A DNA stretch of 64,000 bases from Bacillales bacterium UBA6120 (GTDB lineage Bacteria; Bacillota_I; Bacilli_A; RFN20; CAG-826), in the NCBI GenBank assembly GCA_002422535.1, contig DIVY01000017.1, forward strand, positions 15,176-79,175, written 5' to 3'. The position numbers and the translations under genes are program-made. Shown piece by piece: positions 13,282 to 18,374 of the stretch. The notes beneath the pieces were generated by a model. It was not told the origin of the DNA and searched no databases. It saw only the letters and a list, made by a program, of their open reading frames with translations. Each line of letters begins with the position of its first letter. The stretch's first letter is position 1.

Positions 13282-13350
13282 ATGGCGAGAAGTGTTAATT
13301 TATAAAGCAATTGATGATAATATAATTAAGTCAATTAAAGGAGTAACAAT

Positions 13351-13938
13351 ATGGTTATCTTAACAGTCGGACAAATAATCGGTTGGTCGATCTTCGCACT
13401 CGTCATCATCCTGATTATTGTATTAGCCTTTTGGGTTGTGGCTACCTATAACAAACTGGTGATGGGCCGTAATAAGGTCAAGAATTCGTGGGCCCAAATC
13501 GAAGTGCAGTTAAAACGCCGCTTTGATTTGATTCCAAATCTAGTGGAAACCGTGAAAGGGTTTGCGAAACAAGAAAAAGACATCTTCCTAGAATTTGCTA
13601 AAGCGCGCAAGATGTTTACGGAAGCGTCGGCCACCGGCAACATCGAAGATATGTCCAAGGCCAATAACTTACTATCAAAATCCATCGCCTTGGTCGTCGA
13701 ACAATATCCGCAGTTAAAAAGCGATCAATCATTTTTGAAAATGCAAGATACGCTGCAAGACACCGAAAACAAGATTGCTTTCTCACGGCAATTTTATAAT
13801 GATGTGGTATTAAGCTTTAATAACAAGCGCGAAGTATTCCCCGCCAATATCGTCGCCAGCATGTTCAAGTTTAGCGAAGCTCACTTATTCAAACTTGAAG
13901 AAGAGGCGGACAAAGAAGTTCCTAAAGTTAGCTTTTAG
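13351..13938 (+). CDS. lemA: LemA-family protein
   Basis: N-terminal TM and the conserved LemA core (VEQYPQLKSDQSFLKMQDTL...FYNDVV...FPANIVA). Confidence 0.8.
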   Translation: MVILTVGQIIGWSIFALVIILIIVLAFWVVATYNKLVMGRNKVKNSWAQIEVQLKRRFDLIPNLVETVKGFAKQEKDIFLEFAKARKMFTEASATGNIEDMSKANNLLSKSIALVVEQYPQLKSDQSFLKMQDTLQDTENKIAFSRQFYNDVVLSFNNKREVFPANIVASMFKFSEAHLFKLEEEADKEVPKVSF

Positions 13939-14027
13939 AAGAAATTTATTCAAATTCTATATTTTAAATTTCAAAGAAGTGATTTTAAAAGAAAAGCGAT
14001 CAGCCATACTCTAAAATCGTAAGAAGA

Positions 14028-14058
14028 AAGCCGTGAGAACGAATACCATGGCTTTTTT
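14028..14058 (+). terminator. rho-independent terminator after lemA
   Basis: AAGCCGTG / CATGGCTT stem (8 bp, one G-U pair) followed by TTTTTT. Confidence 0.6.
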
Positions 14059-14263
14059 GATATTTTTATGCTCTTAAATTAACTCTTTTGGCAAAAAAAA
14101 TAAGTGTAAACAATCCTGACAAGATAATCAATATTTAACGTTAATTTTATCAGAACTTCGTCGCTTTACTATTAAAATGTCATAAATAATAAACAATGTA
14201 CTTGAAAAATATATGACAAATGATAGATAATTATAGTGTAGTAAAAGGGAGGAACTTTTATTT

Positions 14264-14620
14264 ATGTTAAGCGGGGAAAAAGTTCAATACTTAAGGAAAA
14301 AAATGGGTTTATCACAAGAACAACTTGCTGATTACCTCAATGTTGATCAAAGTTTAATTTCATTGATTGAAAACGAAAACCGTAATTTTAGCATTGATAT
14401 GGCGGAAAAAATGTCTAAATTAGCGGGAATACATCCTGCCCAATTTTTTACGGACGATGTTCTTGATTTATCTGATGCAATTGCTCTAGATTTTCGCTCC
14501 ACGCCGTTTAGTAATGATGATTTGCTGATGATTGCCGAAGTTAACAATATCGTTGAAAATCTCCGTTGGATGAATCAAACAATTTCACTTAATGGTCAAA
14601 CCAAAAATGAAGAAATCTGA
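14264..14620 (+). CDS. XRE-family helix-turn-helix transcriptional regulator
   Basis: HTH_3 signature LRKKMGLSQEQLADYLNVDQSLISLIENENR. RBS AGGGAGG. Confidence 0.85.
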   Translation: MLSGEKVQYLRKKMGLSQEQLADYLNVDQSLISLIENENRNFSIDMAEKMSKLAGIHPAQFFTDDVLDLSDAIALDFRSTPFSNDDLLMIAEVNNIVENLRWMNQTISLNGQTKNEEI

Positions 14621-15350
14621 AATCAGAGAAAGACTAGCGATTGAAGCTAATAGAAAAAGAAAGGAATTGGGAATCGATCGAACCCCCGATTTCGACATCG
14701 TCAAAGCATTGATCAATTATAAAAAATTTACGATTGTTATTGCTCCACTTGGTCCCAATACTTCGGGAATTTGCTACAAAAATGAACATGTCATTGTTGT
14801 CAACATGAACCAAACCTTGGGACGTGCTCGCTTTACAATAGCGCACGAACTTTATCACTACTTTTATGGAAAAAAAGGAACAGATTATATTTCGCCGACT
14901 AGTTATAATCCGAGTAAGTCAATCGAAGAGTATGAAGCGGATATCTTCGCATCATATTTTTTAGCTCCCCGGGATGATTTTTTCCAGTTTATTTTTGAAG
15001 AAATACGAAAAAGCACGAAATTTAAATTGGTCGATATTTTGAAGATTGAACAGCATTTTATGATGAGTCGTAAATCAACTTTAATAAGGCTGAAAGATGA
15101 TGGTTTTATCGGCGATTATGAGTTTTCAATGTATGAAAATGGAGCGATCATGCAAGCAAAAACGAATGGCTATCAGGATTCGCTATATCGCCAGTGGTGT
15201 GCTGAACCAACCACTTTAGGATATTATCTAAATGCCACTAAATCGCTTTATGAACAGAATTTAATCTCGAAATCAAAACATGATGAGTTACTAATAGAAG
15301 CTTTTCGTACGGATATCGTTTTTAAAGAAAATGGCGTGATTAATGACTGA
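14592..15350 (+). CDS. ImmA/IrrE-family Zn metallopeptidase (anti-repressor-type protease); start may be the ATG at 14607
   Basis: HEXXH motif in FTIAHELYHYF. It overlaps the upstream XRE gene, the classic XRE plus ImmA pairing. Confidence 0.8.
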   Translation: MVKPKMKKSEIRERLAIEANRKRKELGIDRTPDFDIVKALINYKKFTIVIAPLGPNTSGICYKNEHVIVVNMNQTLGRARFTIAHELYHYFYGKKGTDYISPTSYNPSKSIEEYEADIFASYFLAPRDDFFQFIFEEIRKSTKFKLVDILKIEQHFMMSRKSTLIRLKDDGFIGDYEFSMYENGAIMQAKTNGYQDSLYRQWCAEPTTLGYYLNATKSLYEQNLISKSKHDELLIEAFRTDIVFKENGVIND

Positions 15351-15870
15351 CAGACTTGCCAATCATTATTTTGACGCGGATATTCTTTTGAATTTTTTTA
15401 GAATTCATCAAGAAAAAATCATCATAGGTTAAATAAATAACCGGTTTATTACCGAGCAGGTTTATAAAGAGTTTTTATCTTTGTGTAAGTATAGAATGGG
15501 TGCCGAAGTTGGCAACAGGTTAACTTTTTTAGTTGAAGATGGGAGGTATAAACTCGTAAATAAAAACAATTTTTCAATTCCCGAGTACCTTTATTACCAA
15601 TCATTGCTTGATCCGCAGATAGGTCGATAAGCCATCGGCAAAGGAGAAGCCTCTATTATCACGATGGTTAAATTTCGCAAAGGAATAATTGTTAGCAGCA
15701 ATTTTGCCGATGTCGCCGATTATGCACAGCAGTTGGGACTTGCTCATATAGGAACGATCGATATATTAAAAATGGCTTTTCAAAAAGGACTAATAACAAG
15801 TGAACAAGCTTTACGTATTCATTCAATGATGATTAAAATAGGGGCAAAATTGCCTCCTCTAATTTTATAA
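15343..15870 (+). pseudogene. DUF3368/COG2405 PIN-like (toxin-like) gene with two in-frame TAA codons at 15430 and 15628
   Basis: A single frame reads MTDRLANHYFDADILLNFF...*...ITEQVYKEFL...*AIGKGEASIIT...VADYAQQLGLAHIGTIDILKMAFQKGLITSEQALRI. This matches the DxGEAEAIALA...RKVAKxLGLxVxGTLGIL core of DUF3368 PIN-like proteins. Its ATG overlaps the ImmA stop (ATGACTGA). Confidence 0.55.
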
Positions 15871-15875
15871 TTGAA

Positions 15876-16451
15876 TTGCAATTTGCTAGCTTCATTTATG
15901 ATACAATTTGGTTTATGGAAAAACGCATCTTTAAAAATGAAACTAGTTTCTTCGGCAAACTAGAAACATTAATCCGCACCCTATGGGAAAAATCCTTCAT
16001 CCGTTTCGTAGTCGTCGGTGGTTTTAACACATTACTTGGCATTATTGTCACTTATATTCTTCGTTATTCATTTGATGTATTGATTGGTTACAACCCTAAA
16101 TGGGATTTTGTGTTCCTATGGTTTTTGAATCTACAAATCGATATCCCAGGTCTTATTATGTTCGTGGCACTACTGCCAGTGTCATACACCACGCAAGCCA
16201 TTTGGGCGTTTCGCACCAAGTGGAGCTTGAAGCGGTTAGCAATTTACCCGCTATCTTCCATCCCTAACTTCATCTTGCAACAAGGTTTCATTTATTTATT
16301 TGAAATTGTGTTGGGCGTCAATCCTTATATCAGTTATGCCCTCGCCGCGATATTGCCAATCCCGATTATGTTTTTCATCATTCGCTTCCTTGTTAAGCCC
16401 AATAAAAAAGCGGAGCCAATCACCCCGCTTCAAGAAGAAGATAACGAGTAA
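15876..16451 (+). CDS. GtrA-family membrane protein
   Basis: FIRFVVVGGFNTLLGIIVTYIL GtrA signature and 4 TMs. Confidence 0.6.
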   Translation: MQFASFIYDTIWFMEKRIFKNETSFFGKLETLIRTLWEKSFIRFVVVGGFNTLLGIIVTYILRYSFDVLIGYNPKWDFVFLWFLNLQIDIPGLIMFVALLPVSYTTQAIWAFRTKWSLKRLAIYPLSSIPNFILQQGFIYLFEIVLGVNPYISYALAAILPIPIMFFIIRFLVKPNKKAEPITPLQEEDNE

Positions 16452-18374
16452 TTAATCAACGATTCCGGCGATTTGTGTTTCGTAGGTTTCGATTTGCTCT
16501 TCCACTTTTAGTTCGGCGAACTGATTCATATATAGATGGTGATAGGTGCCTTGGGCGGTGATTAATTCGCGGTGGGTGCCATCTTCGATAATTTTGCCAT
16601 TACTCATAACTAAGATGCGATCGCTATCGACGATGGTTGATAAGCGGTGGGCAATGATAATCGAAGTACGTCCCTTAAGGACATCCTTTATCGCTTTTTG
16701 AATGACAACTTCGGTTTCGGTATCAATGGAACTTGTGGCTTCATCAAGAATCATGATAACTGGATCTCTGACAATGGCGCGGGCAAAGGAAATGAGTTGC
16801 TTTTGGCCCACGGATAATTCCGAACCACCATCTTGGAGTTCGGTGTTATAGCCATTTGGCAGTGACATGATGAAATCATGAACATCGACAAGTTTGGCCG
16901 CATGGATGATCTCTTCATCGGTGGCATCAAGTTTTCCATAGGCAATATTTTTACGAATCGTGCCCGAGAAGATGAATGGCGATTGCTGCACATAGCCGAT
17001 GTTACTGCGTAACCATGAGACGGACCGTTCGCGGTAATCGACTCCATCGATTAATAATTGACCACTGGTGGGCTCATAAAAGCGACATAATAAATTAACC
17101 GTGGTTGATTTACCACTTCCGGTTTCTCCCACAATAGCGATGCTTTGACCAGCTTTAATCTTTAAATTCATATCGTGGATGATCTCGATATCTTTGAGAT
17201 ATGAAAAGTTGACATTCTTAAATTCGATATCACCCTTAATGGGTTCATAGTTTTCTTTTCGTTCATGGAAAAGCGTTCCATATTTAGCAATGACATCAGG
17301 ACGATCGACGATTTGCGGTTTCGTATCAATGAGCGACACAATCTTCTCGACCGACGATTGCGTTTGGACGATGTCGCCAAATAATTCCGCAAATTCCTGG
17401 AGCGGGTTAAAAATGGCGCGCACAAACCCGATATAGAGGGCAAATGTCGCCACGGTGATCGTGGTATCGGTTTTCATGAACATGCTGCCGAAGAAGATTA
17501 CGATGGCCGTGGTAAGTGACATAACGAAGACGACTGAAGGATGGAATAACGCTTGGAACTTCGTGCGTTTGAAGTTTTTATTACGGATATCGGTGACGAT
17601 TTCATCGGCTTCGGCTTGGACAGTCGTTTCGATGGCTAGTGTCTTAATGGTTTTGGCTCCGGCGATGGATTCGGCCAGCCAGGCCACATAACCGCTGAAG
17701 GCGTTACGGGCAATCCGACTTAACTTCAAAAGCACCATCTCAAAATAGGGGGCAATAATCATGATTAATGGTGAAGCCGCTAAGAGGATTAAAGCCATCT
17801 GCCAAGAGACCGTAAACATCGTAATTAAAGTAAGCACTAAATCAAAAACTAACCACACGACGCGGATAATGCCCCAAGAAATCATGTCGGCAATCTTGCT
17901 AGTATCGCTTTGGAGTCGGGCAATCAGCCAACCGGCCGAGGTCTTATCGAAATAGGAGAACGATAATTCCTGAACACGGCGGAAACCATCTTGGCGGATA
18001 TCAACATAGATGCTCATCTCAAGATAATTTGTGGCGAAGAAGGTTATGAAGATGCACAAGGATCGCAATAGAATGCCAATTAACAATGTGAGGCCATAGC
18101 CCCAGAAATCAACCGTGAAACGGATGCCGAAAATGAACTGCACATCGATGACCACGGCATCGAAGGGCAGGCCTTGGCTGAGGCGGATCGCTTCAATTGC
18201 CGCTTTGTTTAGTAGTGGCACGAAACTGGCGTCATGAAATGAAGTAAGAAGCATCGTAATTGCGAGTATCGCTAAAAGATACCAGCGCCTCAAGGCATAG
18301 CCGATGATTTTGCCCCACACGCCAAAGTGGACTTTAGTTTTGATTTGCTCTTCTTCGAATGCGAAACTAGCCAT
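16452..18374 (-). CDS. ABC exporter, fused permease-ATPase (heterodimer partner B)
   Basis: Six N-terminal TMs. Walker A GETGSGKST, signature LSVGQKQL, Walker B ILDEATS. Confidence 0.9.
   Translation of the reverse strand: MASFAFEEEQIKTKVHFGVWGKIIGYALRRWYLLAILAITMLLTSFHDASFVPLLNKAAIEAIRLSQGLPFDAVVIDVQFIFGIRFTVDFWGYGLTLLIGILLRSLCIFITFFATNYLEMSIYVDIRQDGFRRVQELSFSYFDKTSAGWLIARLQSDTSKIADMISWGIIRVVWLVFDLVLTLITMFTVSWQMALILLAASPLIMIIAPYFEMVLLKLSRIARNAFSGYVAWLAESIAGAKTIKTLAIETTVQAEADEIVTDIRNKNFKRTKFQALFHPSVVFVMSLTTAIVIFFGSMFMKTDTTITVATFALYIGFVRAIFNPLQEFAELFGDIVQTQSSVEKIVSLIDTKPQIVDRPDVIAKYGTLFHERKENYEPIKGDIEFKNVNFSYLKDIEIIHDMNLKIKAGQSIAIVGETGSGKSTTVNLLCRFYEPTSGQLLIDGVDYRERSVSWLRSNIGYVQQSPFIFSGTIRKNIAYGKLDATDEEIIHAAKLVDVHDFIMSLPNGYNTELQDGGSELSVGQKQLISFARAIVRDPVIMILDEATSSIDTETEVVIQKAIKDVLKGRTSIIIAHRLSTIVDSDRILVMSNGKIIEDGTHRELITAQGTYHHLYMNQFAELKVEEQIETYETQIAGIVD

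Follow-up and report, generated by a model that had tools for sequence, protein, structure and literature searches.

A locus at 13939–15870 of the window (the whole 64-kb stretch of contig DIVY01000017.1 from Bacillales bacterium UBA6120 that was analyzed) is probably a complete, horizontally acquired cassette of ~1.8 kb, comprising a promoter/operator, an XRE-family repressor gene, an M78 metallopeptidase gene, and a PIN-domain nuclease gene, inserted between the terminator of lemA and gtrA (Table 1). The cassette belongs to the three-component XRE/COG2856/PIN class, which has been described computationally, and in this genome it is decayed and inactive as a toxin. The original prediction, made from the sequence alone, had regarded the same genes as a mobile-element or toxin-antitoxin (TA) remnant, that is, either an eroded prophage or integrative and conjugative element (ICE), or a domesticated regulatory module. 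Horizontal acquisition and TA-like character are upheld here, but not the prophage/ICE remnant, as the trio is complete and only the PIN function has been lost. The locus is re-filed from "prophage remnant" to a complete mobile three-component toxin/defense cassette.

The three-gene cassette and its flanks

All three genes lie on the plus strand and overlap, with the start of the M78 peptidase gene (14592) falling before the end of the XRE gene (14620), and the peptidase stop overlapping the start ATG of the PIN frame as ATGACTGA (15343–15350). The proposed overlap of a repressor gene with a HEXXH protease gene was confirmed by the open reading frames (ORFs) and by HTH_3 and Peptidase_M78 hits, and translation bore out both the overlap of the third frame with the protease stop and its core containing GKGEASII and LGLAHIGTIDILKMAFQKGLITS. 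The cassette islet (14060–15875) has a guanine-cytosine (GC) content of 33.5%, compared with 42.0% across the window, and the intergenic stretch upstream of the XRE gene (13939–14263), rightly described before as AT-rich, has 25.2%.

When 185,579 species, each represented by one genome, were scanned with an 11-sequence family alignment, 237 loci were confirmed, the best 80 of which were fetched. An ImmA-like gene (~250 amino acids [aa], E = 8e-14 to 1e-46 against the window protein) ended at the PIN start in 79/79 loci with upstream DNA, typically with the same 8-nt overlap, and was preceded by an XRE gene (~112 aa) in all 75 loci with enough further DNA, the XRE and M78 genes being separate ORFs in every locus. 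Hosts included Lachnospiraceae, Erysipelotrichaceae, Acholeplasmataceae/Anaeroplasma, Peptococcaceae, Negativicutes, and Spirochaetes (Bacillota and Mollicutes being among the phyla named), as well as Varibaculum (Actinomycetota), Fusobacterium, a melainabacterium, and one archaeon, a Methanobrevibacter metagenome-assembled genome (MAG). Intact cassettes are present in cultivable species such as Blautia schinkii DSM 10518 (L019) and Hathewaya proteolytica DSM 3090 (L042). The 137 nearest flanking ORFs fell into 127 Pfam families, none represented more than four times and most of them housekeeping, and no enrichment of integrase or phage-structural genes was found beside the 80 loci. The comparison of synteny that had been suggested as a way to look for an intact element thus shows intact three-gene cassettes in relatives, with no sign of prophage or ICE enrichment around them. 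At one locus (L121, 605–1775), the cassette adjoins AbiH-like and Abi_2 genes plus a Y1 transposase gene, a defense-island-like setting that is not the rule.

An empty site was found in L092, a distant host relative, where LemA (63% identity) and GtrA (53% identity) are separated by just 65 bp holding a terminator hairpin, indicating that the cassette was inserted between the lemA terminator (14024–14058) and gtrA (15915). Taken with the invariant trio, its unrelated flanks, and an operator of its own, this empty site identifies the three genes as a complete, mobile, and self-regulated cassette.

The candidate operator is shared across the family. Its core, GTCATA-N25-27-TATGAC, was found just upstream of the XRE gene in 66/72 related loci (N26 in 55 of these), with two further occurrences elsewhere in 619 kb of related loci and a single occurrence in the window, at 14179–14217. 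The arms read TTGTCATA...TATGACAA, and the best inverted repeat ahead of the XRE genes is the same in almost every locus. In the family promoter consensus, TTGAAa stands directly before the right operator arm and TATAAT 10 nt past it, with a 17-nt spacer, and the right arm therefore sits inside the promoter spacer. A repressor bound at the operator would thus occlude the promoter, and autoregulation is predicted. The earlier claim of several promoter-like hexamers upstream was borne out for one site only, which is backed by these comparative data, whereas the number of such hexamers is at chance level (11 found versus 10.1 expected from shuffled sequence).

Two other readings of the XRE–M78 pair have to be weighed against this arrangement. 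According to the first, the pair is a CapH/CapP-type or domesticated regulator targeting the neighboring host operon (gtrA and the ABC transporter genes), with the PIN gene incidental; we consider this unlikely. The best PADLOC matches of the pair are indeed capP (2.9e-19) and capH (1.8e-9), CapH/CapP are known to regulate diverse adjacent operons, and the XRE and peptidase ORFs stay intact after PIN loss, both in the window lineage and in a second lineage described below. Nonetheless, CapH/CapP lie upstream of and divergent from their target, whereas the window genes are co-directional and overlapping, and the PIN gene is the only conserved partner across 79 loci, the downstream genes differing at every one of them. 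The operator motif occurs once in the window, so that no second target promoter is evident, and the trio, together with its own promoter and operator, forms a whole unit, which speaks against the domesticated module of the original prediction.

The second reading, more improbable still, holds that the locus is the immunity region of an eroded prophage or ICE, in which an ImmR/ImmA-type pair was left behind after the integrase and other genes were deleted and the PIN gene is decaying cargo. The classic setting for an XRE gene next to an M78 gene is the ImmR/ImmA pair, the peptidase matches the phage families phrog_87 ("metallo-protease") and phrog_2439, the islet is low in GC, and some relatives of the cassette are on viral-classed contigs, although these number only five among 2.9 million viral contigs. 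No integrase was found within ~6 kb either side according to the Pfam labels of neighboring genes, in agreement with the previously reported lack of an integrase or recombinase, and no tRNA gene usable as an integration site is present in the window. Evidence against an eroded element comes from the 79/79 loci in which the same three genes alone travel together between unrelated and mostly housekeeping flanks without integrase enrichment, the conserved promoter/operator that is part of the trio, and the empty LemA–GtrA site, which records insertion of the trio only. Likewise, blastn of the 2-kb islet returned no match in 50,697 phage or 72,556 plasmid records, PHROGs gave no match for the PIN product, and the structure model of the latter had no close fold relative among viral proteins.

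The nuclease gene and its premature stops

The broken third gene encodes a PIN nuclease, as judged from conservation within its family, its structure, and PADLOC profiles. The repaired product returned nothing in a word-indexed homology search and had no meaningful Pfam or NCBIfam hit, but an exhaustive HMMER search did find relatives, comprising 231 representative clusters at E ≤ 1e-3, mostly of 170–195 aa and with a best full-length identity of 37%. In a 76-sequence alignment, D11, D13, G101, and E102 are invariant and E43, S118, N120, and D123 are conserved at ≥90%; the conserved acidic residues correspond to the PIN active-site pattern and are all still encoded in the window frame. An AlphaFold2 model, built from the family alignment and the window sequence with X at both stops, reached a predicted local distance difference test (pLDDT) value of 95.1 and a predicted template modeling score (pTM) of 0.89. 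Its best Foldseek matches in the PDB were 1y82, 1w8i, VapC4 (5h4g), and Shigella VapC (5ecw), with probability 1.0, E values down to 3e-5, and template modeling (TM) scores of 0.5–0.7. Nearly all of the top 50 PDB matches were PIN or PIN-like proteins, with VapC toxins and PIN proteins from archaea in the majority, and the matches also included FitB, Nmd4, protein-only RNase P, and the PIN domain of exosome Rrp44. At the sequence level, the PIN profile gave only a marginal VapC hit among PDB sequences (E = 0.11). The PADLOC profile PDC-S70, a PIN nuclease candidate (PMC12988326), matches 63/76 family members (best 4e-11), and PDC-M69C matches 11/76, though neither the window PIN nor its intact allele.

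The original prediction had assigned this protein to COG2405/DUF3368. Its PIN-like nature holds, given the residues, the fold, and PDC-S70, but the DUF3368 label is weakly supported, with the intact allele scoring E = 0.079 and 13.3 bits against DUF3368 (PF11848), below the 27.3-bit cut-off, and 4/76 relatives hitting PF11848, all sub-threshold. Precomputed labels from another Pfam version place PF11848 on the intact allele and on relatives, which makes a distant kinship to DUF3368/COG2405 likely. Like the present family, COG2405/DUF3368 proteins have ~175 aa, a PIN core, and a helical C-terminal extension with a G-T-x-x-I-L-like motif; they are, however, usually paired with UPF0175 antitoxins, whereas the PIN family here is partnered with XRE and M78 proteins. 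DUF3368/COG2405 are thus at most distant kin, no DUF4411 match was seen for the PIN family, and the family is missed by current Pfam models.

Near-identical contigs, found by exact-protein look-ups (99.1%–99.9% identity over 3.1 kb), form a natural allele series. They come from metagenomes of methanogenic hydrocarbon-degrading enrichment cultures and from MAGs labeled "Firmicutes/Bacillota bacterium." The intact 175-aa PIN gene is present in L004 (product NCBI HAK05456.1) and L008, which have TTA and AAA at the two sites; L003, L005, and L006 have the second stop only, and the window, L001/L007, and L002 have both. Each allelic state is represented in at least two independent assemblies, which excludes sequencing error and establishes that both TAA codons, at 15430 and 15628 as originally reported, are real. 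By parsimony, K96* would have arisen before L30*. The haplotypes around the cassette (window 13938–16355; L003–L008) are mosaic: L006 resembles the window in having K96* and no 9-bp insertion upstream (see below), yet has single-nucleotide polymorphisms (SNPs) at 13938, 15717, 15999, 16265, and 16307 in common with intact L004, the last three of which are also common to L008. This mosaicism points to recombination among co-existing strains. What remains of the PIN frame in the window is a 29-codon, a 49-codon (15481–15630), and a 68-codon (15664–15870) fragment, none of which can form the PIN active site; the nuclease is inactivated, while the XRE and M78 genes stay open.

PIN loss was also found in a second lineage, represented by 18 contigs with an identical 252-aa protease (P0174). 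This protease lies beside an intact 178-aa PIN gene in L114, but in L111, L112, L113, L115, L116, and L117 beside a PIN gene cut to its first 93 bp (after codon 31), with unrelated GC-rich sequence in its place ahead of a sulfate permease gene; ten further contigs were listed as similar places to these (eight to L112 and two to L113). Furthermore, two of the five copies on viral contigs (IMG/VR) are decayed and have a truncated PIN gene: at L110 (2255–3601), the XRE and protease genes are kept and the PIN gene is reduced to residues 96–171, and at L108 (5091–6336), the protease gene is split, the PIN gene covers residues 58–170, and there is no XRE gene. Such recurrent nuclease loss is consistent with a costly toxin and would make the nuclease the component under pressure to be lost.

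These losses bear on a further interpretation, in which the locus is a two-gene Xre-COG2856 TA system with the metallopeptidase as toxin, the XRE protein as antitoxin, and the PIN gene as an unrelated third gene. In TA databases, Xre-COG2856 appears as a type II pair whose toxin is the protease, as in a table of Makarova et al. (PMC2701414), and the NCBIfam "spr1629 family repressor/antitoxin" model matches both the XRE protein and the peptidase at sub-threshold level. However, overexpression of pneumococcal COG2856 proteins caused no toxicity in either S. pneumoniae or E. coli (PMC4257102), and in VapBC52 the PIN protein is the toxin (PMC13273310). The PIN gene of the cassette is, moreover, invariably present and translationally coupled, and it is the gene that is repeatedly inactivated, as expected of a costly component, which leaves the protease a very unlikely toxin. 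That the PIN gene is still alive in this genome, its TAA codons being assembly errors or being read through or recoded, is extremely improbable even though all catalytic residues are encoded and the frame is otherwise open, since, besides the window, two independent assemblies have the two-stop allele and three have the one-stop allele, intact alleles have TTA and AAA there, TAA ends 18/41 long ORFs of the window (the PIN gene included) so that recoding is not an issue, and neither a recoding signal nor an Rfam match was found in 13300–16500.

The repressor-peptidase pair, related systems, and a proposed mechanism

The helix-turn-helix (HTH) of the XRE protein is followed in the family by a conserved FAFRA motif, in which R is present in ~90% of members, and in the window by L-D-F77-R78-S in the C-terminal part. 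Phe77-Arg78 (codons 14492–14497) is the predicted protease cleavage site, as it matches F82|R83 of CapH and F75-R76 of VapB52. CapP has been reported to cut CapH between F82 and R83, at the start of the dimerization domain, with R83A CapH remaining uncut (Lau et al. preprint), and F75-R76 is the FR motif at the self-cleavage junction of VapB52 (PMC13273310).

The HEXXH motif of the peptidase is H85-E86-x-x-H89 (codons 14844–14858), and the family conserves HEXXH together with a downstream E-x-E-A-D. Its sole sequence relative in the PDB is CapP (7t5t, E = 1.5e-4), and CapP also came first in the fold search (E = 2.3e-5), followed by PprI/IrrE and PrpR, with ~165–173 columns aligned; the CapP match (~173 columns) spans the peptidase and the central part. 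A cysteine-switch Cys, 12 residues past the second His of HEXXH, is present in 72/77 relatives, and the corresponding set in CapP is H96, E97, H100, C113, and E129. In the two-stop lineage, the peptidase has three private amino-acid changes (K14R, Y203C, and K205E) and no private synonymous change, which may reflect relaxed constraint.

Three-component Xre/COG2856/PIN systems were predicted by Makarova et al. in 2009 (PMC2701414) and Matelska et al. in 2017 (PMC5499597), the latter listing COG2405, DUF4411, PIN_14, PIN_20, and PIN_26 PIN domains in such triads. The window cassette resembles the class as treated there in its same three co-transcribed domains, a PIN protein presumed to be the toxin, a protease presumed to cut Xre, and a mobile, patchy distribution. 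In the parts of those papers devoted to this class, however, HTH-protease fusions are mostly described, whereas the window cassette encodes three separate proteins, and there is no mention of a conserved operator, an FR site, a cysteine-switch position, or recurrent PIN loss. Only the fused form, VapBC52, has been studied experimentally. The new points added here are incremental: an operator shared family-wide, an FR site in a repressor that stands alone, a PIN family scoring under Pfam thresholds, and a natural allele series.

VapBC52 of Mycobacterium tuberculosis (Rv2514c/Rv2515c), in which single-stranded DNA (ssDNA) triggers a self-cleavage that frees the toxin (PMC13273310, 2026), shares with the cassette family a PIN toxin downstream of HTH and IrrE-type peptidase functions, an FR motif ~75 residues into the HTH part, and a cysteine-switch loop. 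VapB52, however, is a single fused, self-cleaving protein, and its PIN toxin is of the DUF4411 type, whereas the window has separate substrate and protease genes, Ser at the switch position, and no DUF4411 match. CapH/CapP, found in antiphage signaling systems based on cyclic oligonucleotides (CBASS) and in further immune operons (Lau et al. 2022 and Calloji et al. 2026 preprints), have in common with the pair an XRE-type repressor, an F|R site, and an M78 partner, and CapP is the closest solved structure to the window peptidase. In addition to their divergent arrangement, they differ in the C-terminal GAF domain by which CapP is aided in ssDNA binding, where the model of the window peptidase appears helical. 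The cysteine switch is not strictly defining, as only one in three CBASS-associated CapPs has it.

ImmR/ImmA of ICEBs1 and Gram-positive prophages and DdrO/IrrE (PprI) of Deinococcus are alike in that a repressor is cut by its cognate M78 protease upon DNA damage. What these pairs govern is an entire mobile element or a regulon of the chromosome, whereas the window pair has one nuclease gene attached; it is not within a larger element, being flanked by LemA/DUF2207 and GtrA/ABC transporter genes, and its peptidase is modeled without the GAF domain of IrrE. The pair lacks defining features of ImmR/ImmA, of CapH/CapP proper, and of VapBC52; with its PIN gene, it is assigned to the three-component class. 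Among the candidate defense systems of Payne et al. (2024 preprint), PDC-M69 (three genes, A/B/C) and PDC-S70 (a single PIN gene), the cassette has weak matches only and is a distant relative (PDC-M69A with XRE, 8.7e-4; PDC-M69B with the peptidase, 1.1e-11); no mention of PDC-M69 was found in the literature searched.

By analogy with these systems, the XRE protein would probably bind TGTCATA-N-TATGACA around the −35 box and spacer, keeping the operon nearly silent. Once activated, the M78 peptidase could plausibly cut XRE at Phe77|Arg78, at the start of the C-terminal oligomerization region; cleavage of Xre by the protease has been proposed for Xre/COG2856/PIN systems in the class descriptions (PMC2701414; PMC5499597) and has been demonstrated experimentally for fused VapBC52 (PMC13273310), CapH/CapP, and DdrO/IrrE. 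The trigger might be a damage or infection cue such as ssDNA, as for CapP, IrrE, and VapB52, a suggestion we make with considerable reserve. This step is the weakest link owing to the apparent absence of a GAF domain: CapP and IrrE sense ssDNA in a groove between the peptidase and GAF domains, and such a groove may not exist in the window peptidase. Loss of XRE would then de-repress the operon. Perhaps XRE also binds the nuclease, as the N-terminal domain of VapB52 does, in which case its loss would free the nuclease as well; we put this forward tentatively. The PIN nuclease, finally, would likely degrade RNA, leading to growth arrest or aborted phage infection.

Several observations weigh against the cassette reading or against parts of it. 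DNA binding, cleavage, toxicity, and trigger of the split cassette are all attributed by analogy. The window promoter departs from the family consensus (−10 box GATAAT), as does the repeat spacing (N27, compared with N26 in 55/66 relatives). The half-site centers lie ~32–33 bp apart (three helical turns), a distance uncommon for a single XRE dimer that implies a tetramer, a pair of dimers, or bent DNA. Curated Pfam thresholds are unmet by the PIN family, with PF01850 hitting 7/76 relatives, all sub-threshold (best E = 5e-4), and the window protein not at all. The peptidase model is of only moderate confidence (pLDDT 72), and its ~80 C-terminal residues (175–252) are modeled, with moderate certainty, as helical and free of a GAF-type sheet. 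In all alleles, Ser101 (14892–14894) takes the place of the switch Cys, and the window peptidase is the most deviant member of its family, departing at 14/68 conserved columns compared with a mean of 3.4, so that it may itself be impaired. There is also no clear enrichment of the cassette in defense islands.

It is conceivable that the missing switch Cys makes the protease leakier and is linked to toxin loss, although four other Cys-less proteases (L011, L052, L073, and L089) adjoin intact PIN genes, which weakens the link. A broader and rather speculative scenario, to which we give little weight as a whole, is that the cassette acts as a suicide (abortive-infection) module, set off by damage or infection, with a costly nuclease that is repeatedly lost, leaving orphan sensor-repressor pairs that persist or are re-used; the strains would then represent three live stages (intact, K96*, and L30* plus K96*), with decay maybe favored by a leaky C101S protease. 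For the split form of the class, the comparison provides handles in the operator TGTCATA-N26-TATGACA over the promoter, the predicted Phe|Arg site, the cysteine-switch position, and the PIN family missed by Pfam. The allele series, together with the independent deletion, should be useful for annotating such loci and for judging whether a predicted defense system works.

Locus boundaries and feature coordinates

The host DNA is bounded on the left by the lemA terminator, so that the inserted cassette starts somewhere past 14058, and on the right by gtrA, which places the cassette end within 15871–15914. The flanks are common to all near-identical contigs, with DUF2207-LemA on the left and GtrA plus two ABC transporter genes on the right.

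Table 1. Positions of the cassette genes, their regulatory features, the premature stops, and the bordering host features in the window
Feature	Position	Strand	Details
lemA terminator hairpin	14024..14058	+	Inverted repeat AAGAAAGCCGTG / CATGGCTTTTTT, then T run; lemA is the upstream host gene
Candidate operator	14178..14218	+	Inverted repeat TGTCATA (14178-14184) ... TATGACA (14212-14218); encloses the -35 box
Candidate sigma-70-type promoter	14202..14231	+	TTGAAA (14202-14207), 18 nt, GATAAT (14226-14231); 10/12 matches, best site in region
Ribosome-binding site	14245..14252	+	AAGGGAGG, 11 nt ahead of XRE start codon; read from sequence
XRE-family HTH repressor, 118 aa	14264..14620	+	Pfam HTH_3 E=7.4e-13; HTH at residues 8-60
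M78 (ImmA/IrrE/CapP-like) zinc metallopeptidase, 252 aa	14592..15350	+	Pfam Peptidase_M78 E=3.2e-16, above 22-bit cut-off
PIN-domain nuclease pseudogene, 175 codons	15343..15870	+	TAA at codons 30 and 96; D11, D13, E43, E102, D123 still encoded
First premature stop	15430..15432	+	TTA (Leu30) to TAA, T-to-A at 15431
Second premature stop	15628..15630	+	AAA (Lys96) to TAA, A-to-T at 15628
GtrA-like membrane protein, host gene	15915..16451	+	Pfam GtrA_DPMS_TM; start also called in related contigs

The near-identical contigs are polymorphic for a 9-bp indel, TTGCTAGCA, whose insertion point is 14129/14130 of the window (L004 6780–6788); L003, L004, L005, and L008 carry the insertion, and the window, L001, and L006 lack it. 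When the next AA is included, TTGCTAGCA gives a perfect 10-bp palindrome, TTGCTAGCAA, which lies ~50 bp upstream of the operator. Near both islet ends there is an 8-mer, TTGCTAGC, its right copy (15884–15891) lying just past the PIN stop and its left copy occurring only in alleles that carry the 9-bp insertion. The idea that this 8-mer marks a target-site duplication was considered but dismissed, as the repeat is probably due to chance (rough estimate ~0.15 for an 8-mer common to two 100-bp stretches).

Three assemblies break in the AT-rich intergenic region between lemA and the XRE gene, with L009 ending at ~14244, L010 ending at ~14183, and L002 starting at ~14145, and in sample JGI 3300002498 two contigs overlap by ~39 bp inside the same region. 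These breaks look less like a biological boundary than like an assembly graph split by differences between strains, namely the 9-bp indel and SNPs close to it.

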